Virus record (IMG/VR): IMGVR_UViG_3300029611_000001
Location: 25,067 to 89,066 of that record
Reading direction: 5' to 3' (one strand)
From: a virus
Lineage: Duplodnaviria > Heunggongvirae > Uroviricota > Caudoviricetes
DNA length: 64,000 nucleotides
The notes under the pieces are model-generated. The model saw only the letters and a list, made by a program, of their open reading frames with translations, ran no database searches and was not told where the DNA came from. Position 1 is the first letter of the stretch; every line of letters starts with the position of its first letter. This document shows, in pieces, positions 24,844 to 60,133 of this stretch. A program made the position numbers and the translations under genes.

Positions 24844-25363
24844 ATTCGAATTTTAGATTTTCAAGTTCATTCAATTGTTTCTTAGTCAATTCGATCAGGT
24901 ACGTTCTCCGTTCCTCTGCATGTTTTAAAGCTTCTTCTTTGCTCTCAAAAGCATCCCTTCCTATTTCATAAGGAGTGATCCTATCAGGAATGTCGGCTAA
25001 CAAAAGACCACCATACTCTTCTATTTTAGCTTTTACTTTTCTTATTATACCGTCTCTCATGCACGCATCTGTAATCCATATAAACCTATCACATTCTTCT
25101 AATTCCCTTTCGTACAATTCATACCATTCTGGTTTAGGAAATCTTAATGTAAATCTAATCTCGGTATCTTTTTCTAAGACATTAATATCATACGCCTCCG
25201 GCCACAGCTCTTTTATACTGTTCTCGTCTTCAGCATATGCTACCAATACAAATGAATTACTGGATTCTGCACTACACCAATATGGATATTTTATAGGCCA
25301 TTTGACTGGACGGTAATCATTGTTACAGTCATCCTTTCTAATGTAAAATCTTGCTTTAATCAT
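24833..25363 (-). CDS. Hypothetical protein (176 aa)
   Basis: ORF. Confidence 0.55.
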   Translation of the reverse strand: MIKARFYIRKDDCNNDYRPVKWPIKYPYWCSAESSNSFVLVAYAEDENSIKELWPEAYDINVLEKDTEIRFTLRFPKPEWYELYERELEECDRFIWITDACMRDGIIRKVKAKIEEYGGLLLADIPDRITPYEIGRDAFESKEEALKHAEERRTYLIELTKKQLNELENLKFECDD

Positions 25364-29553: not shown

Positions 29554-30573
29554 TCATCGTTTTATCTTTTTAGACGGATCCCAATCCGAAGAGAAAGGGC
29601 ATTCGTTTTTGTTATGTAATCCAAAGTCGCAATAATAACACAGTGCTGACGGGCAGGGTAGCTTGTTTTGCGAAACAGGCTGGCTTAGGGTGGCACGCCG
29701 CTTGCTATACCTGGCTCCTTCTGCTCCCTGGATGTACGCTTGAAATGATTTTACACTATTATCTTCAAAATCATACATTTTAGATAAAGTGTCATTTAGC
29801 ATTTCTATAGATTTTGTTTTACGTTCCTCATCCACCTTAACCTTTTGGTACTGCCTGGTCCTGGTAAAGAAATAGATGTTCATATCTGGTAGAACCCCAC
29901 CATATCTTCTATAGATGTAAAACGAATATATAGGATGCTGTAAATTTGTTTCCAGCTTTTTAGAATCAAAAATTTTATTACCTGATTTCCAATCTATGAC
30001 ATAATGATGGATCACCCCTTTGCTCTTTATAGCCAGATGAAGGTCTACTGATCCTACTATGTACACATGTGTATGAACGTCACCATTTATATCAACAGGC
30101 TTAGGAAGACGATACGGCAGCACAAAATCTTCTTCTACTCCAACTATAGCACCGTGTCTGATAAGTTTCTCACAGGGATTAAGATCACTATCAGCTATCA
30201 TAAACCTATTGCCGTCTTTTTTGAACAGATCCACAATCCAAGCAAGAAGCTCCCCAGATTGTTTCATGGCTATCATCATATTTTCTGGTGATTGCCAAGG
30301 TATGTCTTCTTGATAGGAATAGTAACTTATCGCTTCTCCAAGGTCTTTACCAGAAGGCTGTCTTCCGTTCTTAAAGAAGTATTCCAGTGTTTTATGGATA
30401 ACCGTACCATAAGATGTAGCTTCTTGTTTTTCTGTAGACCTTTTACCCTCTACGTAAGTCTTATACCATTTCATTGGACAAGTAAGAAACGTATCTATCT
30501 GGGAATAAGATATGGCAAGACGTTTCACACCATTAAACTCCTTATATAGCAAATGTGTTTCCGGGACCATCAT
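29554..30573 (-). CDS. PD-(D/E)XK nuclease, Cas4/RecB-like with 4Fe-4S Cys cluster
   Basis: N-terminal Cys (CPMKWY), GSVDLH, IDWKSG (ExK), QHPIY (QxxxY), C-terminal CPSALCYYCDFG...ECPF. Confidence 0.75.
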   Translation of the reverse strand: MMVPETHLLYKEFNGVKRLAISYSQIDTFLTCPMKWYKTYVEGKRSTEKQEATSYGTVIHKTLEYFFKNGRQPSGKDLGEAISYYSYQEDIPWQSPENMMIAMKQSGELLAWIVDLFKKDGNRFMIADSDLNPCEKLIRHGAIVGVEEDFVLPYRLPKPVDINGDVHTHVYIVGSVDLHLAIKSKGVIHHYVIDWKSGNKIFDSKKLETNLQHPIYSFYIYRRYGGVLPDMNIYFFTRTRQYQKVKVDEERKTKSIEMLNDTLSKMYDFEDNSVKSFQAYIQGAEGARYSKRRATLSQPVSQNKLPCPSALCYYCDFGLHNKNECPFSSDWDPSKKIKR

Positions 30574-30929: not shown

Positions 30930-31202
30930 AATGCTTGGTCAGTTCTTCTGGTTCTAAATCTTGTCCAAAATCCATGTTAAAAATATCGTAATTAGTAAAG
31001 CACTGTTCCTGCCGGCAGGAAATCTATGAATGCTGCTTTTATTTCTTCAATTAGGCCCAAGTGTAACCTTGGGCCATTGTATTTATTTTTTGTCATCTCC
31101 TTTTAGCTTCTTTAAAGTATCTGCAATCGGAAGCTGATCAATGACTCCCAATGCCGGAGCGACGGTCTTAACAACATTGTTAAGGAAATTACCGGTACTG
31201 TT

Positions 31203-32783
31203 CTAACCGCCGTCAAATACCGTGATATTTCCGAGGTTAATGTGCTCAAATGCCTTAACCTGTTCTCCAGCAATTTCTTTCCACTGATTAACCATCTTGT
31301 ACTGGATGGCTATCTGAGGATTGGATTCTGCTGCTTCCACCATAGCCTTAAATCCGTCGGCTTCTGCCATTAACGACTTTTTCTTACCTTCGGCTTCTGC
31401 TTCCAACTTCATCTTAATAGCCTTTGCTTCGGCTTCTGCTTTTGCCAAATTGGCTGCTGCTTCAGCGGCAGCCCGGCGTTTAATCTTTTCTGCTTCAGCA
31501 TCAGCTTGCAAGATAGCCTCTTCCTTCTGGGTTTCAGCCGGCACAATCTTTTCAGCCTTAAGCGCAGCCTGAACTTTCTTAGCCTTAGCTTCTTCCACTT
31601 CTTTGTCGGCAAGCTCTTTTGCTGTTTTTACAGCCGCTTCCGATTTAACTTTTTCTTCTCCGGCCTTCTTTTCTGATTGAGCTTTGATGATCTGTAGTTC
31701 TGATACTGACACAGCAACCTCCTTCTGGGCATTGTTGTATCCTATAGACGCATTTTTCTCAGCCTCAGCCTTCTTAATCTGAGCTTCAGAGTCTTGTATT
31801 GCTATAGCCGCTTCCTTGTCAGCTTCAGCCTTATTCTTTCCGACTTCTTCCATTCTTTCAGCCTCAGCTTTGTTTACCTCAAGTTCTGCCTTAGATCTTG
31901 CAATCGCCGATTCTTTGTCAGCCAAAGTCTTTGCAATAACCGCAGCCCTATCTCTATCGGCTTGAGCTACACCGATCTGTTTTTCTTTATCGGTTAAAGC
32001 CAAAGCTACTTCTTTTTCTTTCTTTGTTTCAGCTACTACCGTTTCCTTTTCTTTTTCAGTATAGGCAATTTGAATCTCTTGCTCTTTTTGGGTATTAGCT
32101 ACAGCCGTTTCTTTTTCCTTTTGCTGTACAGCAATCTTAATAGCACCCAGCTTTTCCTGTTCTTCGATATTAGCCTGTGCTTCGTTCAGGGCCTTACTTT
32201 CAGCTTCTTTGCCAAGATTCATGATATAGCCGGCTTCGTCTCTGATGTCACTGATGTTGATATTTAGGAGGTAAAGGCCTAACTTATTAAGTTCGTTATC
32301 AATGTTTTTTCTTGCCTTATCCAAAAACTCATCCCTGTCAGAATTAAGTTTTTCAATCGTCATTTCAGCAATGATCAAACGCATTTGGCCATAAACGATA
32401 TCCGTAATAAGATTTTCAGTAGATTCAGTATCCATCCCCAAAAGCCTTTCTGCTGCATTCTGCATAATTTCAGGATTTGTGCTGATTGCTACTGTAATAG
32501 TAGTAGGTACATCCACTCTGATATTTTGAGACGACAAAGCACCGGTGAGCCTACAATCTATTTGCATAGGCTCCATAGACAAAATATCATAGCTTTGAAT
32601 AATAGGCAAGACGAATGCCGCTCCACCATGATATAATTTCGCCGATTTCTTTTCCCCACCTGTCTTACCATAAACGACCAAGACTTGATTAGGCTTACAT
32701 CTACGATACCTTGATAAGACTCCGATGATTGTCAAAATAATCACTACAGCTAAGATAGCTGACACGTACATGATTGTTGTCAT
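31203..32783 (-). CDS. Flotillin / SPFH (band 7) family protein, YqiK-like, with long A/E/K coiled-coil tail
   Basis: N-terminal TM, VLVVYGKTGG...YHGGAAFVLPIIQSYDILSMEP SPFH core, EA-repeat coiled coil. Confidence 0.8.
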   Translation of the reverse strand: MTTIMYVSAILAVVIILTIIGVLSRYRRCKPNQVLVVYGKTGGEKKSAKLYHGGAAFVLPIIQSYDILSMEPMQIDCRLTGALSSQNIRVDVPTTITVAISTNPEIMQNAAERLLGMDTESTENLITDIVYGQMRLIIAEMTIEKLNSDRDEFLDKARKNIDNELNKLGLYLLNINISDIRDEAGYIMNLGKEAESKALNEAQANIEEQEKLGAIKIAVQQKEKETAVANTQKEQEIQIAYTEKEKETVVAETKKEKEVALALTDKEKQIGVAQADRDRAAVIAKTLADKESAIARSKAELEVNKAEAERMEEVGKNKAEADKEAAIAIQDSEAQIKKAEAEKNASIGYNNAQKEVAVSVSELQIIKAQSEKKAGEEKVKSEAAVKTAKELADKEVEEAKAKKVQAALKAEKIVPAETQKEEAILQADAEAEKIKRRAAAEAAANLAKAEAEAKAIKMKLEAEAEGKKKSLMAEADGFKAMVEAAESNPQIAIQYKMVNQWKEIAGEQVKAFEHINLGNITVFDGG

Positions 32784-32814
32784 AACTTTTAAAATTTAAT
32801 TGTTGATAAAAAAA

Positions 32815-33309
32815 TTAGATACTTAATTCTCCTTCTTCATATTTTATATTCGCCTTGTCGCCGTTTTTGTAGGTTTTTCCAGACAAGCATCTTACTCTCA
32901 TTTGCTCTTGTCTTCCATTTTTCGAAATATTTACCATATAATGATTCTTCCCTGATCTAAATACTATCTCCACCTCTCTGCCATTTAAATCTTCCGGACA
33001 TTCGTACACCATTTCTTGTTTTAACTTAAGAAGTAACTTATATACGTAAAACAAAACGATAAAGAAAAACGACCCTATCACAACCCCTACTAAATGGGAA
33101 CCCGAAAAGTAGGTAGTCCAGCTATATCCAAGAATAAAATGTGTTATGCCCTTGAATGATATGATGTCCGACAAAGACATACTTAAATCAGAAGCACTGT
33201 CAATGTCAATATCCGTATCCAGATCAGATCCTAATATCGACAACAAAAACTGTATAACAAAAGCAAATGACGCTATTAAAGCCATGCATAAAATTATGTC
33301 ACTTCCCAT
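32815..33309 (-). CDS. NfeD-like (YqiJ-type) membrane protein with C-terminal OB-fold
   Basis: Multiple TM helices plus C-terminal beta-rich GREVEIVFRSGKNHYMVNISKNG...; sits immediately upstream of flotillin, as in yqiJK operons. Confidence 0.6.
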   Translation of the reverse strand: MGSDIILCMALIASFAFVIQFLLSILGSDLDTDIDIDSASDLSMSLSDIISFKGITHFILGYSWTTYFSGSHLVGVVIGSFFFIVLFYVYKLLLKLKQEMVYECPEDLNGREVEIVFRSGKNHYMVNISKNGRQEQMRVRCLSGKTYKNGDKANIKYEEGELSI

Positions 33310-33550
33310 ACCCTTCTGTTATTATTTTGTAAACAAGATCAGTCATATCTTTGATGGTCTCCATATCATAATCAATAATAACAATATTGAATTTTTGTTC
33401 CACCATCACTTCCAGTTCAATTTGATCAACAGAATCTAATCCAAGTTCTTTAAACGTCACATCTTCTTCATGAACTATATCTATTTCCGAATTAAGAAAC
33501 TGAGTAATAATTATATCCTCTATTATCTTTCTGATTCTTACTTTTTCCAT
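33299..33550 (-). CDS. Acyl carrier protein-like (phosphopantetheine-binding)
   Basis: LGLDSVDQIELEVMVEQKFNIVI matches the ACP DSL motif and helix II. Confidence 0.7.
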   Translation of the reverse strand: MEKVRIRKIIEDIIITQFLNSEIDIVHEEDVTFKELGLDSVDQIELEVMVEQKFNIVIIDYDMETIKDMTDLVYKIITEGYGK

Positions 33551-34251
33551 TGCTTTCTAATTTTGTTAAATAAATACGTTTTTATGTTTTTCAATCGCTC
33601 TTTGTCTGTTTCCGAACTTCCGGTAAACAAATAATCCGGATTTCCTTTAGCCGGCGGCGTAGGCAATTTAGATACGGCAAACAACCAATCCATTTCCTTA
33701 TTCTTCTTAGACTCCAAATAAGGCTCGGTAGCGATCTTAAATTTTTCAGCTATTAAGTCAAAGAGCTTTGAGTTTTTAAGGTTCATATGGACTGAAAAAG
33801 CCTGAGAAGGCGGTTTCCATATGAAGTTACATAAGCTCATTGTGTAATCTCCTGACTCTGCTATATAAGATTCTGTTACCTGAAGTATGACCTCTTTCTT
33901 AAATGAGGTGTTACCCATAAACCAACACAATCTGGATTCCGCTTCTTTTCTGCTGACACCTATGTCTTTTGAATATGATTCGTACATTCCTATCATAATC
34001 TTCAACGTTTCCAGAACCTCGTCCGTCATTTCCGGTGTCTCTATATAATTCACAAAAGACGTTCCTTTGTTGGTTAATCTCATCACGCCTGATTTTAATT
34101 TCTCAACCAGGCCAAGCTCTATATATCTCCCAGCATCTTCTTCCGGCATGGCTTCGATCATAACCGAATCCTTCTGTCTTATGGCAAGAAGATTAGCAAG
34201 ATCATTAGGAGTCATGTCTGATGCTGCAAGTTGTCTGAAATTGATGTACAT
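33538..34251 (-). CDS. Hypothetical protein (237 aa)
   Basis: ORF; weak resemblance of SRKEAESRL to a PPTase motif, not sufficient for a call. Confidence 0.55.
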   Translation of the reverse strand: MYINFRQLAASDMTPNDLANLLAIRQKDSVMIEAMPEEDAGRYIELGLVEKLKSGVMRLTNKGTSFVNYIETPEMTDEVLETLKIMIGMYESYSKDIGVSRKEAESRLCWFMGNTSFKKEVILQVTESYIAESGDYTMSLCNFIWKPPSQAFSVHMNLKNSKLFDLIAEKFKIATEPYLESKKNKEMDWLFAVSKLPTPPAKGNPDYLFTGSSETDKERLKNIKTYLFNKIRKQWKK

Positions 34252-34475: not shown

Positions 34476-35078
34476 TTAACTGTTGTATCCTTCTTTGATA
34501 ATCGAATTTCTACCGGTAGATACCGACTGTCGAAGATCGTCATGTACAGAATCTACCGTAGAATACTTGTTTCTGGTTGTAAAAATCACTTCCAGCATCT
34601 CCTTGTAATCACCTAAAGCCACTTCGTATCTTGGATCCACTTTGGCTTTTCTTTCAGCCTCGGCATTACTTTTAGCCAGCTCTCGGTCGAGAAGATCTTC
34701 TTTGATTCGGTCAGCAATCATATCAAGTTCTTTTTTAATAACTTCTCCTGCTGCCCGAAGTTGACCTTCTACGTCACCAAGCTGGTCTTGGACGGTTCCT
34801 ATTTCTTTCTTTAGGCGATCGTATTCGTTAATCATACCCATATCACCTGCATAGCCGGAAAAGTCCTTGATTATTCTGGTTCCTTCTTTAAGGAGCTCAA
34901 TAACTCGTCTTTTACGTTCTCTGCTTATTAAAGACGGAAGACGATAATTCATATCCGCCACCGCCTTATCATGTATGGAGTTGATTAAAAACATCTCTCT
35001 TTCATCTCCTGCAAACTCAGTAAGAACCAAAAGGAACTTACTTATCAGGTATTCGTTTTCTTCTACTGTCAGTCTCAT
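34476..35078 (-). CDS. Hypothetical coiled-coil protein
   Basis: ORF 34476-35231 trimmed to internal ATG 35078 to avoid a 139-nt overlap with the helicase gene. Confidence 0.5.
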   Translation of the reverse strand: MRLTVEENEYLISKFLLVLTEFAGDEREMFLINSIHDKAVADMNYRLPSLISRERKRRVIELLKEGTRIIKDFSGYAGDMGMINEYDRLKKEIGTVQDQLGDVEGQLRAAGEVIKKELDMIADRIKEDLLDRELAKSNAEAERKAKVDPRYEVALGDYKEMLEVIFTTRNKYSTVDSVHDDLRQSVSTGRNSIIKEGYNS

Positions 35079-35092
35079 GGTTCTTATTTTTT

Positions 35093-36226
35093 TTAATACA
35101 ATGACCGTTCTTCTTTTGTCTCTTGTTCTTGTTCCTGATTGTCCGTAACGTCTTCCACAGTATAGAGCTTGGGCGGCGTCGGCGGCTGGTTGGGGTTCAC
35201 GAACTTCGTCCCGCCCTCCCCGTACATCCATCCATGCCCCGGCAGAATCTCTGGGTGGATTGTATTAGTAAGCTCTTCCATACTAACTTGCCTTACCTTC
35301 AGTATATGATGAAACACCAGTCCGGCTGTCCTGAATGATGTTTTGTTTTCAGTTTTAAACCTATCAAGAGTCTGATACCAATCTTTCCCAAATATCATAT
35401 ACTTATCCAGCCCGTACCTACGAGGATTGTGCAAACCTATCATTAACGTACATAACTGACCCAGCGTATCAGATTGGTAAAAATCAGAAAGACGCGGAGG
35501 CTGCTCTTGTGGGCTTTTTATCCTTCCTTCTATCTCTCTGTTGAATTGTGATATGATGAGGAAAAATATGTTTTTATATACTAATTTAGCTTCGTTCATA
35601 ACCGCCACCAAATCATCTATAGCCGACTTAGGATCTAACCCCATTCTTTTTATCAAAGCAATATGATCGACTTTAAATATTATAAGACGTTTGTCTTTGT
35701 GTTTGGTAGCTATATGATACACAGCCGCCTCAAACTCTTTTACCGTACACGGAGCATCGATGTATATTATATTATTCCTGATTTCACCTTGAAGGATTTC
35801 AAACATCCTCATCTCTTCCACTGTATTAGAATCTTGCCTTCTTAATATTTCAGGAGCCCGCTTTTTCATATCCTGGCTCATTCTACGAAGAAGAAGATCT
35901 TGAGGATTCATTTCGAACTCGCAATTAACAAGAAAATAATCTTCTGCTTGCGGGTTGATCATCGGATTCATCACATTTTCCAATATCTTTTGGGCCACAT
36001 ACGATTTACCTACAGATGGCCGGGCTCCTATGGCAATAGCTTGCTGAGGGAAAATACCTCCAAGCAAAGCCTCATCAATATAATCGTATCCGGTTTTAGC
36101 GGGGATAAGCTCTCCCCGCCTGTATTTCAAGATATTCTCATACGCCTCTTCCATGACCTGTTTAGAGGTCTTGAATATCCTTCTTATATCTATCCTATTT
36201 GCTATCTCCTCGTGCATTTTTGTCAC
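35093..36226 (-). CDS. DnaB-like replicative helicase (RecA-like C-terminal domain only)
   Basis: YDYIDEALLGG...IGARPSVGKS Walker A; ISQFNREIE (SQLNR-like) motif. Confidence 0.8.
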   Translation of the reverse strand: MTKMHEEIANRIDIRRIFKTSKQVMEEAYENILKYRRGELIPAKTGYDYIDEALLGGIFPQQAIAIGARPSVGKSYVAQKILENVMNPMINPQAEDYFLVNCEFEMNPQDLLLRRMSQDMKKRAPEILRRQDSNTVEEMRMFEILQGEIRNNIIYIDAPCTVKEFEAAVYHIATKHKDKRLIIFKVDHIALIKRMGLDPKSAIDDLVAVMNEAKLVYKNIFFLIISQFNREIEGRIKSPQEQPPRLSDFYQSDTLGQLCTLMIGLHNPRRYGLDKYMIFGKDWYQTLDRFKTENKTSFRTAGLVFHHILKVRQVSMEELTNTIHPEILPGHGWMYGEGGTKFVNPNQPPTPPKLYTVEDVTDNQEQEQETKEERSLY

Positions 36227-45750: not shown

Positions 45751-45768
45751 AATCAGATATTTTTAAAA

Positions 45769-46020
45769 TCAATTCGAATAAATATAATACATTCCTGCTT
45801 CATATACCTTATGTACATCAGGGTCATTCTTGTCTTCCGGTTCCAATTCACTCTCTTCACAAGTATAATCCCATTCAGAGTTGTAGTACATATCCTCGTC
45901 TGTTTTCTCCAAGGAACAATCTTTCATTAGATTCATATTTTCTCCCCATACTGCAACTTCTTGTCGTTGCTCTTCTTCCGCCATAAGGGATATTTTGTCT
46001 TTCAATTCTTTCCAGGTCAT
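45769..46020 (-). CDS. Hypothetical acidic protein (83 aa)
   Basis: ORF. Confidence 0.45.
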   Translation of the reverse strand: MTWKELKDKISLMAEEEQRQEVAVWGENMNLMKDCSLEKTDEDMYYNSEWDYTCEESELEPEDKNDPDVHKVYEAGMYYIYSN

Positions 46021-46044
46021 GATTTTTAAAAGATGATTAATAGT

Positions 46045-46428
46045 TTATTCTACATCAAAAAGCTGATCTAACACCAACAATTCCGCATTCATATCTTCAT
46101 CTTTCGGGAAACGAACTTTTATATTTCCAAACTTAGATGTCTTAAACAAGATGTAGGGGTTCATATCTTCGGCAGTCACCGGCTTATATTCCTTAACTTC
46201 CGACATCTTGAGATACCAGTCACCTATTTTTACAAACCCAGAAAAGATAGAACACAGATGCGCTTTTACGGACCGTATCTCCTTTTTATCTTTGAAAGGT
46301 ATAATTTCGTCCTTTCCCCTTATCCTGATTGACAGAAAAGGACGAATGTTATCTGTTTCATTTTGAAATTTGAAGCCTGTTATAGCTTGTTTGGGGATTC
46401 TTCTTCCCATTAATATGAAATAAGCCAT
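46045..46428 (-). CDS. Hypothetical protein (127 aa)
   Basis: ORF. Confidence 0.5.
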   Translation of the reverse strand: MAYFILMGRRIPKQAITGFKFQNETDNIRPFLSIRIRGKDEIIPFKDKKEIRSVKAHLCSIFSGFVKIGDWYLKMSEVKEYKPVTAEDMNPYILFKTSKFGNIKVRFPKDEDMNAELLVLDQLFDVE

Positions 46429-46498
46429 TGCAATAAGTTGTTTTACTTTGTATTCTATAATCCTACCAACAAGTTCCCCGATGATAGAAAATATTCTA

Positions 46499-46666
46499 AT
46501 TCATAGAGGAAAGAAAAGAAGTAGCTCTTTCAAATTTTCTTCTTAGTTCATTAGACCATTGATGATCATAATCTGCCAATAATGATCCCATTTCCATTAT
46601 TAAGGAATAAACTTCTTCTTTTCTTGCTAAAAAAGATTGTTTGTCTTTTTCTTTTAATGTTTTCAT
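46499..46666 (-). CDS. Small helical protein (about 55 aa, below ORF-track cutoff) downstream of 45-bp repeat copy 1
   Basis: ATG at 46664-66 (minus) through stop at 46496-98. Confidence 0.35.
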
Positions 46667-46707
46667 GACTGTAACTTAAAAATGAATAATTAATTGATTT
46701 ATAAAAA
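46664..46707 (-). repeat. Copy 1 of about 45-bp conserved element (core TGAATAATTAATTGATTTATAAAAA); promoter-like or island boundary
   Basis: Near-identical copy at 52988-53033; both directly precede a small minus-strand ORF start. Confidence 0.6.
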
Positions 46708-46737
46708 ATGTGTTAAAATGACATATAAATGCCTTGA

Positions 46738-47535
46738 TCAATTGGACACAAATGTACAAGTTTTATTAAGATACCCTTCTGTCATCTCTATGAAATTCAC
46801 ACAATCTAATTTGCTTAACTTGTAAATCAATGCCGGATTGTGTACTATGGCTATAATTTGCGTTTGTGGTTTATGGAATGACAATACATTATAAATTTGC
46901 ATTATATTGTCAATGTCAAGATTCCTGTCTGGCTCATCCATGAGAACCGTGTATTCAAAACTGCTTTCTGTTAATGTTATGCGGTTTCTTTTATAATACT
47001 TCAACAGACTATCAATTCTTTTAATCCAAAACGCATTTGATTTTTTCTTGTATTCTACAAGATCTTGTATTGGAAACGTATAATCCTTTTGACCGAACAT
47101 TAAATTGAAAAGTGATTCCAATGATAACACCACTTTCTCTCCATAAGATCTTCTAATATTATTCACATACAAATCTAAGTTGCTGATGTTTTTCAATACG
47201 CTATCTCGATTCATCTCCGCCGATGGCAATAAACGGAATACTTTCCCTGCATAATCGGATGATATATCAATCCCATCAAGAACCTTATCATCATCATCAA
47301 ACATAGGTGGAAAATCCAGTGCCTCGGTCGGTATTTCAGAGCACATGGACTTCTCGCATAACGCATACATTGACATGATGTTAAGCAAAGTTGATTTTCC
47401 ACTACCGTTTTTACCTATAATTACATTCACTCCTGGCTTGAAAATAAATTCTCTACCATTTTCAAACGCTTCTATGTCAGAAGCATATTCAAATGGAGTT
47501 TTTGTATTGTCTTTTATTTTTACCGATGTTATCAT
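46738..47535 (-). CDS. ABC-type (AAA_21/SMC-like) ATPase
   Basis: Walker A GKNGSGKST, signature-like SYGEK, Walker B VLMDEPDRNLD, H-loop IVHNP. Confidence 0.75.
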   Translation of the reverse strand: MITSVKIKDNTKTPFEYASDIEAFENGREFIFKPGVNVIIGKNGSGKSTLLNIMSMYALCEKSMCSEIPTEALDFPPMFDDDDKVLDGIDISSDYAGKVFRLLPSAEMNRDSVLKNISNLDLYVNNIRRSYGEKVVLSLESLFNLMFGQKDYTFPIQDLVEYKKKSNAFWIKRIDSLLKYYKRNRITLTESSFEYTVLMDEPDRNLDIDNIMQIYNVLSFHKPQTQIIAIVHNPALIYKLSKLDCVNFIEMTEGYLNKTCTFVSN

Positions 47536-47547
47536 ATGTAATCCTTT

Positions 47548-48384
47548 TTAAAAATCAATTACCGCCCGAACCCTGTAACTATTGTACTCAATGTTGCTGT
47601 GCGTGCCGCCATTGGAGAAGCTCACGAACCATGCGCTGACCTTGCTGTACTCGGTACTGGACCAATACCGCGCCGAGGAGAGGGGAGATGCCGAAACATA
47701 AGCGAATGCTTTGTTTAGTTCGTCCATATGATGGGCCATTAAATTTAATTGACCAAGAGATGGTATATACTCGTCATCTTCCAGCAGATTTCTCAATTTT
47801 GGATTTCTGGCTACAAGGCGTTCCGTATTGCCGCGTCCGTCAATATCAAACAGCGCATCACATTCACGTTCGTAATATGTCTCACTTCCGGATTCTTTAC
47901 GGCTATCATTGTCAAGCAACCGTACACTATCATGCTCCTCCAGCGAGATAGCAAACGATACGTCTTTGTGTTTTAATCCGATATAACGCACATTCTCTTT
48001 AATATTCTCTCCAGTAAACGGCTCAGCGTGTCCGTTTCCGTAGATTAGATACAAACCATCTTTTCTTGATGGTACTCTATTTTCACATACGCATCTTTCA
48101 TTTTTTGGTCTTACAATTATGTTCAACTCATTCAACACATGATCTTTTATGACTTCCTTGCTTATTCTTTCTACAAAACCATAATTCCTTTGTTTAAGCT
48201 CATCATTTACCATACATCTGATCCAATTTTCTATCTGATTGTTTCCTCCGTATGTATTATGCATGCACCTTTTTACAAGCTTTTCCAATAATGATTCTAT
48301 GTTTTTGATTATATCTTCTTTGGTAAGGTGAAGTTCATTTAGTATGCAGTTTCTTACCGCCTTGTATTCTTTACTTGTGCTCAT
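47548..48384 (-). CDS. Protein with C-terminal DUF1566 / Fib_succ_major-like domain
   Basis: IPSLGQLNLM...YWSSTEYS...AWFVSFSNGG...YRVRAV; the 3' end of the gene is markedly GC-rich. Confidence 0.55.
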   Translation of the reverse strand: MSTSKEYKAVRNCILNELHLTKEDIIKNIESLLEKLVKRCMHNTYGGNNQIENWIRCMVNDELKQRNYGFVERISKEVIKDHVLNELNIIVRPKNERCVCENRVPSRKDGLYLIYGNGHAEPFTGENIKENVRYIGLKHKDVSFAISLEEHDSVRLLDNDSRKESGSETYYERECDALFDIDGRGNTERLVARNPKLRNLLEDDEYIPSLGQLNLMAHHMDELNKAFAYVSASPLSSARYWSSTEYSKVSAWFVSFSNGGTHSNIEYNSYRVRAVIDF

Positions 48385-58867: not shown

Positions 58868-58986
58868 CTTATTATTGTTTTATGCATTATATAAATACAA
58901 AGAGCGCATACCTTCACAGGCCGGCGCTCCTTTCAATAAAAATGAAAAAACTAACATTACATAAACATATTGTTTTTTAATCTTTA

Positions 58987-59220
58987 TTACAATACTTTTG
59001 TTCCGCAATTATTATATCTTCCGTACTCTTTTTTCGTATCATTCAAGATTTCAAAAACCATCTTCTTGTGATCTTCGTTTGGTAACCTATCCTTAACAGC
59101 CGATATTACGCCCGCTATAGACGTAAAGCCTGAATCTGTTATTGAACACAGCAACACACCTCTGTCGGCTCCGGTGCTTATTGCTGACGCCTTTATAATA
59201 TCATTCTTGTATATTCTCAT
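58987..59220 (-). CDS. Hypothetical protein (77 aa)
   Basis: ORF. Confidence 0.4.
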   Translation of the reverse strand: MRIYKNDIIKASAISTGADRGVLLCSITDSGFTSIAGVISAVKDRLPNEDHKKMVFEILNDTKKEYGRYNNCGTKVL

Positions 59221-59398
59221 AATCTTTCGTTTTATTATCTACAAACTTATCTATATCGTCTCTTATTCTTTTTAGCACTCCGGCTATAATTGTCGGCATT
59301 TCTCCTCCGGTACGGTTCAGAGTTTCTATCACCCCGTCAATCTTACCCATTTGACGCCATAAGAAATTGGCGTCTTTCGCATTAAATTCCCCCATCAT
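59201..59398 (-). CDS. Hypothetical protein (65 aa)
   Basis: ORF. Confidence 0.4.
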   Translation of the reverse strand: MMGEFNAKDANFLWRQMGKIDGVIETLNRTGGEMPTIIAGVLKRIRDDIDKFVDNKTKDYENIQE

Positions 59399-59475
59399 GT
59401 CTTATTTTACAGTAAACAACTTGCTTTTTTAAGCACCAGTCTTGCGATTCTGAGAGTGAACACCGTCCTGTGTTG

Positions 59476-59631
59476 TTAAAAAAATATACAATCTTTGCAG
59501 AACATAACAGGCTCTTCGTCGTCACTAACTACTTTGACCTCATACTCTATGCCATACAATTTTAATCTAAATACATCCCCTGCTTCTTTAGAAGACAAAT
59601 CCATGTTCGGACCGAATGTTATTACTTCCAT
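59476..59631 (-). CDS. Small hypothetical protein (51 aa, below ORF-track cutoff)
   Basis: ATG at 59629-31 (minus) to TAA at 59476-78. Confidence 0.3.
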   Translation of the reverse strand: MEVITFGPNMDLSSKEAGDVFRLKLYGIEYEVKVVSDDEEPVMFCKDCIFF

Positions 59632-59649
59632 ATAATTATGTTTTATTGT

Positions 59650-59745
59650 TTGTGAGATGCCCAGAATCGAACCAGGACCGGCACATACGCACCGGCACGC
59701 CGCGTCATCCCTCTATGATACAGAAATAGGCATGTCTATCCTCAC
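59650..59745 (-). tRNA. tRNA-like element: canonical T-arm (GGTTCGATTCT) and acceptor 3' strand; 5' half not resolvable by hand (possible tRNA gene, intron-containing tRNA or tRNA 3' fragment)
   Basis: Plus strand TGTGAGATGCCCAGAATCGAACCAGG is the reverse complement of a tRNA T-loop/acceptor end; sits in an intergenic gap; 8-bp perfect hairpin GGCATGTC...GACATGCC upstream. Confidence 0.4.
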
Positions 59746-59804
59746 GAACCGACATGCCAAAACCCAAAACTTAATTTGATGAATAAAATAGATTAACAAA
59801 AATA

Positions 59805-60119
59805 CTATTCTAATTCTTTTATAATATCTTTCACAATATTCAGCCTCACCTCCTTCGTTTCTGGACTAAGACAACCAAACCACCCATAAAACGTTCTTGT
59901 TTCCTCTGGTTCTGTGGCCATACTTATCTTCTCCTCCAATTCCGGGAAATATATTCTCACCATTTCGTCTGAACGAAACTCATATATATTTTTATGTGTT
60001 TTGAGATACATAAACACTACATTTCTTAACGCAACACATATGTATTCCCCATCCTCTAACCTATCAATCATCTCATATACCTTTTTCCATATGAATAATC
60101 GCTCTTCTTTTGTAAACAT
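59805..60119 (-). CDS. Hypothetical protein (104 aa)
   Basis: ORF. Confidence 0.5.
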   Translation of the reverse strand: MFTKEERLFIWKKVYEMIDRLEDGEYICVALRNVVFMYLKTHKNIYEFRSDEMVRIYFPELEEKISMATEPEETRTFYGWFGCLSPETKEVRLNIVKDIIKELE

Positions 60120-60133
60120 ATCCTTCTTTATTT

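Follow-up and report, generated by a model that had tools for sequence, protein, structure and literature searches.

A Bacteroidales NfeD-like/flotillin operon captured by a large crAss-related gut phage: strong constraint combined with recurrent loss of the flotillin gene

The subject of this study is a group of three genes in a 64,000-nucleotide stretch of DNA (the window; positions 25,067 to 89,066 of IMG/VR record IMGVR_UViG_3300029611_000001) from a large (~150-kb) crAss-related gut phage with a Bacteroidales host. The group comprises three co-directional minus-strand open reading frames (ORFs) encoding, from upstream to downstream, an acyl carrier protein (ACP)-like protein of 83 amino acids (aa; 33299–33550), a transmembrane (TM) protein of 164 aa (32815–33309) and a flotillin of 526 aa (31203–32783). 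We find that the 164-aa protein and the flotillin are the phage copy of a two-gene Bacteroidales operon (an NfeD-like gene, then a flotillin gene) that landed in the early/replication gene block of the phage, directly downstream of a pre-existing phage ACP-like gene. The explanation that we favour, and that we judge reasonably probable when taken as a whole, combines a captured operon that is constrained yet dispensable with a separate ACP and with a cage-forming mimic of the host system. An earlier note on the same DNA had called these three genes, and an ORF check reproduced them exactly, on the minus strand; it had also placed them inside a replication module, which is borne out by flanking genes for a DnaB-like helicase, a PD-(D/E)XK exonuclease, a ResIII helicase and a primase-like protein.

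Origin of the flotillin and its partner in a Bacteroidales operon

A scan for host flotillins, using one genome per species, returned 80 loci, all of them Bacteroidales and spanning Bacteroides, Parabacteroides, Phocaeicola, Prevotella, Leyella and Xylanibacter. A gene of the TM-protein family lies directly upstream and on the same strand in 79 of these loci, with a gap of mostly 35–42 nucleotides (nt), and the sole locus without this partner has no upstream sequence. The pair is arranged in the same way in two further contexts. Gene order and lengths in the Bacteroidales operon (~165-aa NfeD-like protein, ~545-aa flotillin; e.g. Bacteroides xylanisolvens, B. intestinalis, Parabacteroides goldsteinii and Prevotella spp.) are as in the phage, whose two genes are separated by 31 nt compared to ~35–42 nt in the hosts. 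The flotillins of both exhibit Band_7 and Flot domains and a conserved C-terminal tail, with host chromosomal flotillins 62–67% identical to the phage flotillin over the full length, whilst the partner proteins share a DxDxDxD loop, an SFKG..HF motif and an OB tail at ~35–41% identity. On one bacterial contig, for example, the pair lies among lysS, pgi and gpsA and its partner protein is 39% identical to that of the phage (E 3e-40). What distinguishes the phage copy is its presence on a virus, within a replication block, its coiled coil of variable length and its frequent deletion or truncation in the population. The earlier note had read the pair as a reproduction of the bacterial yqiJK/NfeD-flotillin operon, which was right in kind, with the correction that the source is a Bacteroidales operon and not an enterobacterial one. 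In E. coli, yqiJ-yqiK has the same two-gene layout and YqiK aligns collinearly with the phage flotillin (24% identity, E 2e-20; Band_7 and Flot in both); YqiJ, a DUF1449 inner-membrane protein, resembles the phage partner in its TM helices and C-terminal OB domain, but is without the DxDxDxD loop of the phage partner family.

The window region is 96.6% identical to GenBank OR575929.1 (phage csAssE-Sib, complete 151-kb genome, human gut), and a second phage lineage (131 contigs of up to 150 kb) carries a flotillin that is 82–83% identical at the amino acid level within an identical gene order: DnaB, 200 aa, 237 aa, ACP, TM protein, flotillin, then PDDEXK. Amongst IMG/VR viral contigs, the flotillin is found on at least 145 and the ACP on 181; these viral-contig and protein searches are dominated by near-identical relatives, with no intermediate lineages sampled. 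In neighbour-joining trees the phage flotillins form one clade and the phage partners form one clade, both outside the crown host group; the divergence of the phage clade exceeds that between host genera, with phage-host identity at 60–70% and identity between host genera at 76–89%. Since each phage protein forms a single clade and the second lineage has the same gene order, the data fit one fairly old capture, before the split of the two ~150-kb phage lineages. The 62–67% identity of the pair to host genes could also be taken as a sign of a chimeric assembly or bacterial contamination; however, the phage copies form a clade of their own, and the recurrence of this gene arrangement, in an unchanged position, in one complete GenBank genome, in at least 145 IMG/VR contigs and in the 131 contigs of the second lineage excludes this explanation, to which we give practically no credence. 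The trio described in the earlier note is thus present in related phages and is not a chimera.

Some Bacteroidaceae genomes seem to possess two paralogous NfeD-like/flotillin operons, and the Phocaeicola vulgatus-type copy of the operon forms a divergent long branch in both trees. A bacterial flotillin of 659 aa has two Band_7 stretches, part of its SPFH domain being duplicated internally, either genuinely or as an assembly artefact.

The 164-aa NfeD-like membrane protein

We regard the 164-aa protein as a short NfeD-like partner and not as a member of the YqiJ family, since its fold and synteny are NfeD-like and the YqiJ models are not matched by its family; this assignment is based on predicted fold, architecture and synteny rather than on sequence models. 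Indeed, the protein has no match in Pfam (E <= 0.1), PHROGs, NCBIfam or PADLOC, and searches of PDB sequences with 5- and 80-sequence profiles of its family returned nothing significant, which leaves the structure-based searches as the only informative ones. Its AlphaFold model (mean predicted local distance difference test score, pLDDT, of 73.5) contains three TM helices (residues 2–25, 46–69 and 72–101) followed by a predicted C-terminal five-stranded OB-type beta domain (residues ~110–164, pLDDT 82–89). When this model was used in a Foldseek search, YbbJ from the cryo-electron microscopy structure of the QmcA-YbbJ complex (8z5g) ranked second, aligned over 119 columns that include both the TM and OB regions, and the beta domain superposes best on the NfeD domains 3cp0, 3wwv, 2k14, 2exd and 8z5g. 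A viral homolog at 34% identity is named "NfeD-like C-terminal domain-containing protein" in BFVD.

An exhaustive profile search yielded 420 representatives of the partner family, mostly 150–190 aa in length, which are characterised by an acidic D-x-D-x-D-x-D loop, the SFKG..HF motif and the tail pattern LvGr…GD.V.I…yyI. The NfeD model PF01957 is matched by one of 80 family members (6e-5) and not by the window protein; the alignment of the family profile with YuaF is in register at E 0.1, a similarity at noise level. The window protein and the 80 family members are all without a match to the YqiJ_N (PF21001) and YqiJ_OB (PF07290) models, both of which match E. coli YqiJ (58 and 54 bits). In an hhalign comparison of the family with E. 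coli YqiJ, the expected register (last TM helix, linker, OB domain) was recovered at E 0.042 and 1.3% probability. The description in the earlier note, a YqiJ-like multi-TM protein with an OB-fold tail, holds for the TM helices and the OB-type domain of the model, whilst for YqiJ there is no model match. The profile searches that the note had proposed assign Band_7 and PP-binding domains within the trio, whilst NfeD is not assigned to the 164-aa protein.

Flotillin architecture and the premature stop in the window

The flotillin encoded in the window begins with a hydrophobic segment (residues 1–28) as N-terminal membrane anchor, followed by a Band_7 domain (PF01145; 90.2 bits, cutoff 23.6; residues 30–211 aligned to profile positions 4–176 of 176) and by a coiled coil (residues 212–480) that consists to 62% of Ala, Glu, Lys and Gln with one Pro. 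The match to Flot (PF15975; 29.1 bits, cutoff 27) covers only profile positions 1–75 of 124 because of a premature TAG stop; the full-length flotillin of a relative reaches 38 bits over positions 1–120. This TAG (31203–31205, minus strand) aligns with a CAG codon (Gln527) in csAssE-Sib and in most relatives. Downstream of it the orphaned 3' end of the gene remains (31083–31202, minus strand), with 39 sense codons in frame and the original TAA at 31083–31085. The full-length protein in csAssE-Sib is 566 aa, so that the window allele is 40 conserved residues shorter at its C terminus; in phage flotillins and in their bacterial homologs alike, the tail NSTGNFLNNVVKTVAPALGVIDQLPIA is conserved. 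The earlier note had thus recognised the flotillin and its Ala/Glu/Lys coiled coil, in agreement with the Band_7/Flot matches and the composition, but its 526 aa are a truncated form of a 566-aa protein. The 526-aa form is a circulating allele and not a sequencing error, because 8 contigs of up to 149 kb, drawn from JGI, Logan and ENA, carry the identical sequence.

Were the in-frame TAG read as glutamine, the window would make the full 566-aa protein after all: TAG replaces a CAG glutamine codon exactly, the codons beyond it stay in frame and conserved, and TAG-to-Gln recoding occurs in some crAss-like gut phages. There is, however, no tRNA in the window, and the tRNAs of the complete relative genome are limited to Cys, Arg, Gln (TTG), Met, Tyr and Lys, with no suppressor amongst them. 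TAG ends 10 other ORFs in the window, 8 of which have in-frame extensions of at most 17 codons, TAG readthrough does not merge ORFs genome-wide, and other flotillin alleles are cut by TAA stops and frameshifts too. Recoding was rejected on the tRNAs of the window and the complete relative, on stop-codon usage and on ORF merging under alternative codes, and we regard it as very improbable.

Directly after the original flotillin stop lies an 8-bp GC-rich hairpin (GGCCCAAG-loop-CTTGGGCC; 31054–31075) that is conserved in csAssE-Sib. It obtains a terminator score on the opposite strand only: since no T-run follows it on the coding strand, a role as terminator is unproven.

Strong constraint and recurrent loss of the flotillin

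The ratio of non-synonymous to synonymous substitution rates (dN/dS) of the flotillin is 0.036 in comparison to csAssE-Sib and 0.063 in comparison to the second lineage (dS ~1.8). Values for DnaB (0.041) and the exonuclease (0.035) are similar, that of the ACP is 0.27–0.33, and by this measure the intact flotillin is under purifying selection as strong as that on replication genes. In order to count losses we used a sample anchored on the ACP, and hence unbiased for flotillin state, of 73 distinct haplotypes. The flotillin is intact in 52 of the 73 and disrupted by deletions or stops in the other 21 (~29%, window allele included), whilst p237 (the 237-aa protein upstream of the ACP) is intact in 73, DnaB and the ACP in 72 each, the exonuclease in 71 and the NfeD-like partner in 70. 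Loss is thus specific to the flotillin, given that the neighbouring genes are intact in 70–73 of 73 haplotypes, and the partner gene is usually retained.

These losses have occurred repeatedly. Independent flotillin deletions across IMG/VR loci show at least 9 different boundaries and comprise clean excision at an ATTTTT microhomology just past the partner stop, fusions of the TM protein with the flotillin and an in-frame deletion inside the coiled coil; premature stops fall after residues 36, 69, 257, 276, 404, 425, 489, 499, 502 and 526. Hundreds of truncated flotillins (242–529 aa) on 140–150 kb contigs are found in the protein database, and phages lacking the flotillin persist as diversified sublineages. 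As the gene is lost or truncated in ~29% of distinct natural haplotypes, the flotillin is conditionally dispensable for phage propagation.

Several further observations concern this part of the locus. Some metagenomic proteins are fusions in which the TM part at the N terminus of the NfeD-like protein is joined to the flotillin C-terminal end; they result from an internal deletion across both genes. Around 17 haplotypes possess an extra insertion of ~350 nt between a small ORF downstream of the flotillin and a 119-aa gene, at the equivalent of window positions ~30930–31080; this insertion is absent from the window and from csAssE-Sib. Synonymous divergence between the window and csAssE-Sib is uneven, at 0.28 for the flotillin (31083–32783), 0.20 for the exonuclease and 0.05–0.09 for DnaB, p237, ACP and TM protein, which suggests a recombination mosaic around the flotillin.

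The ACP-like gene as a separate unit

The 83-aa protein is acidic (pI 4.3) and matches Pfam PP-binding (PF00550; 26.7 bits, cutoff 20.8) and PHROG 5934 'acyl carrier protein' (2e-8); it remains below the cutoff of every NCBIfam ACP equivalog model (at most 30 bits compared to at least 66 required), which makes it a divergent member. The serine motif is LGLDSVD in the window and LG(L/F)DSLD in relatives, with D39 and S40 invariant across phage lineages in which the protein is only 38% identical. An ACP-like gene immediately upstream with an intact DSL motif, as given in the earlier note, is hence accurate for the ACP, its position and its serine, while the motif reads DSV here and DSL in relatives.

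The ACP gene overlaps at its start, by 13 nt, with the 3' end of the gene for p237 (33538–34251, minus strand), which is conserved together with the ACP in both phage lineages. No match for p237 was found in Pfam, PHROGs, NCBIfam or PADLOC; the protein is 78% identical between the lineages (dN/dS 0.07). Downstream, the ACP stop overlaps the start of the 164-aa protein by 11 nt, and this overlap too is kept in both lineages. Neither an ACP nor a p237 homolog lies within 4 kb of the flotillin in any of the 80 host loci. In addition, the ACP evolves ~5x faster than the flotillin (amino acid identity between phage lineages 38% vs 83%) and is kept in haplotypes from which the flotillin has been deleted. 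Because it is absent from the host loci, evolves faster and is retained after flotillin loss, the ACP stands outside the captured operon: it is a pre-existing phage gene that forms a separate unit with p237, and the flotillin is its neighbour by insertion history. These same three observations speak against the single functional three-gene cluster proposed in the earlier note.

Earlier papers report SPFH proteins and ACPs from jumbo phages (PMC7760394, PMC6034870), and RaK2-like jumbo phages (Yersinia phage fHe-Yen9-04, Erwinia Eneladusvirus) carry an SPFH protein and an ACP, as is the case here (PMC7760394). The SPFH proteins of jumbo phages and of Vibrio phage KIT04 are, however, unrelated acquisitions that share at most 34% identity in the SPFH domain only. 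A recurrent ACP-SPFH pairing in other phages was considered and rejected, the ACP of fHe-Yen9-04 having no SPFH gene within 8 kb. Vibrio phage KIT04 (LC487410.1, T5-like) encodes a 473-aa flotillin with an abutting upstream 82-aa protein that has TM segments and no OB domain, and this protein may be a minimal partner.

Possible functions and alternative explanations

By analogy with QmcA-YbbJ and FloA-NfeD, we propose that in infected cells the phage flotillin and the NfeD-like protein probably build an SPFH cage together, on the cytoplasmic side of the inner membrane of the host. Such a cage would form early or in the middle of infection and would have an accessory, host-mimicking function: it could supplement, replace or mix with the host flotillin system, and the outcome might be that the organisation or integrity of the membrane is kept in a state that suits the phage, or that the membrane is altered for other phages. 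SPFH proteins assemble with their NfeD operon partners into membrane-attached cages; the architecture of SPFH cages is described in PMC12624060, and a further paper summarises QmcA-YbbJ as 26 heterodimers and S. aureus FloA-NfeD as stabilising proteins under stress (PMC13086221). In E. coli QmcA-YbbJ (PDB 8z5g), B. subtilis FloT-YuaF, S. aureus FloA-NfeD and Pyrococcus stomatin PH1511 with PH1510, an NfeD OB-fold protein and an SPFH scaffold are operon partners, as in the phage pair. These characterised complexes differ in that their sequence similarity to the phage partner is at noise level. In a more far-reaching form of the proposal, which we think unlikely, the phage pair (60–70% and ~40% identical to the host proteins) would co-assemble with the host cage or displace it and so take over inner-membrane organisation, for example through sequestration of a membrane protease or stress sensor of the host or through a block on rival phages. 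On this view, the gene-specific spectrum of deletions, stops and coiled-coil length variants would record a conflict that is still under way, for instance one in which the phage escapes host sensing of the foreign cage. Retention of the partner gene after flotillin loss could mean that its product also works with the host flotillin.

Several points weigh against the favoured explanation. Phage-host identity (60–70%) is below the identity between host genera (76–89%), and hence the donor cannot be named. The translational coupling of ACP and TM protein (11-nt overlap in both lineages) makes some functional connection of the ACP with the pair conceivable, the conserved overlap itself pointing to co-translation and to nothing more. 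The frequent loss of the flotillin could mean that in many hosts it costs the phage more than it brings. Finally, the cage-assembly step and any benefit for the phage are only inferred.

Amongst the alternatives, we attach a limited, tentative probability to an accessory module for superinfection exclusion, a role that the earlier note also raised, or for defence or counter-defence. Here the cage would alter the inner membrane against competing phages or blunt a membrane-acting host defence, and fluctuating selection, or escape from a host sensing system, would account for the presence/absence polymorphism. Gene-specific presence/absence and truncation together with strong purifying selection are typical of conditionally useful accessory genes, and a position amongst early/middle genes is compatible with this. 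On the other hand, PADLOC gave no match for the flotillin, the TM protein, the ACP, p237 or the 251-aa ORF described below, known defence and anti-defence domains are absent nearby, and a literature search found no experimental precedent for flotillin-mediated exclusion; moreover, this explanation overlaps with the favoured one rather than excluding it. The same polymorphism might be read as decay, with the flotillin a passenger of neutral host DNA on its way to loss, given that deletion and nonsense alleles are frequent and that one is present in the window. We find this improbable: dN/dS remains at 0.04–0.06 across synonymous divergence of up to ~1.8, full length and gene order are kept in two lineages ~17% apart in protein sequence, and ~70% of haplotypes are intact; a neutral 1.7-kb insert would not remain so conserved.

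The idea that ACP, NfeD-like protein and flotillin act as one functional trio in a membrane-associated replication or assembly compartment, already contained in the earlier note, might further involve the ACP in acyl or lipid chemistry. It gains from the adjacency and common direction of the genes, from the 11-nt ACP/TM overlap in both lineages and from the location of the cluster within the replication module. The ACP is, however, found in none of the 80 host operons, evolves ~5x faster than the flotillin and is intact in 72 of 73 haplotypes compared to flotillin loss in 21 of 73. The complete relative genome has no annotated phosphopantetheinyl transferase or acyl-handling enzyme, most of its genes being hypothetical. 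The persistence of flotillin-lacking sublineages indicates that the flotillin is not essential for replication or assembly, and a compartment that organises these processes as an essential role is unlikely with the flotillin disrupted in ~29% of haplotypes. We therefore consider the trio highly improbable and retain the captured host operon with a separate ACP as the favoured explanation.

Genomic surroundings

Upstream of the group, the replication module contains a DnaB-like replicative helicase (35093–36226, minus strand; Pfam DnaB_C 62 bits, PHROG 37407 2e-40), and on the downstream flank the replication/recombination module continues with the PD-(D/E)XK exonuclease (29554–30573, minus strand; Pfam PDDEXK_1 73 bits, PHROG 69). 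Further neighbours are a ResIII/Helicase_C helicase, a zinc-ribbon/DUF6371 primase-like protein and a dGTP diphosphohydrolase. In GenBank, the DnaB helicase is closest to those of Cellulophaga phages phi17:2/phi4:1 and of crAss-like phages (25–29% identity), and the annotation of csAssE-Sib contains crAss-type structural terms such as muzzle and ring proteins. These DnaB relatives are absent from the flotillin and ACP search results; amongst GenBank phages, p237 and the ACP match csAssE-Sib only, and no 'pre-capture' relative without flotillin was found there. A sigma-70 promoter scan stayed at background level, with a model that does not cover Bacteroides promoters.

An ORF of 251 aa (34476–35231, minus strand) shares 139 nt with the 3' end of the DnaB gene. 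Its true start is probably further downstream, since in most related contigs only part of it lies within one ORF. OR575929.1 has an annotated diversity-generating retroelement (variable repeat, template repeat and initiation of mutagenic homing, VR/TR/IMH, plus reverse transcriptase) beside a tail-fibre gene, as well as two TnpB/IS605-type genes (coordinates of these features: 45751–47816, 58986–60125 and 64190–65413). In the second lineage, a TnpB gene and a NAMPT/NAPRTase gene lie downstream of the replication block.

Significance

The gene calls themselves are already public in GenBank, in JGI/IMG (flotillin and ACP named) and in UniProt/BFVD, and OR575929.1 annotates the trio as "acyl carrier protein", "transmembrane protein" and "flotillin family protein". 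The view of the earlier note that this is unusual phage cargo can thus be kept in part, given the SPFH proteins and ACPs reported in jumbo phages (PMC7760394) and the annotation in OR575929.1 and JGI/IMG. Our literature search found no paper on the csAssE-Sib lineage, nor on flotillin in crAss-like phages. New here are the capture of the whole operon from Bacteroidales, the recognition of the partner as NfeD-like and the independence of the ACP, together with strong constraint combined with recurrent gene-specific loss, including the nonsense allele in the window. The host-gene capture is well supported, and because the gene calls were in public annotation the immediate surprise is modest. To our knowledge, bacterial flotillins and their NfeD partners are still without a clear physiological role. 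An abundant human-gut phage lineage that captured a whole host operon, which is constrained and from which the flotillin is yet repeatedly dropped, constitutes a natural gain/loss series: comparison of flotillin-plus and flotillin-minus phages could reveal how SPFH cages are used in infection, and whether viral and host subunits mix.

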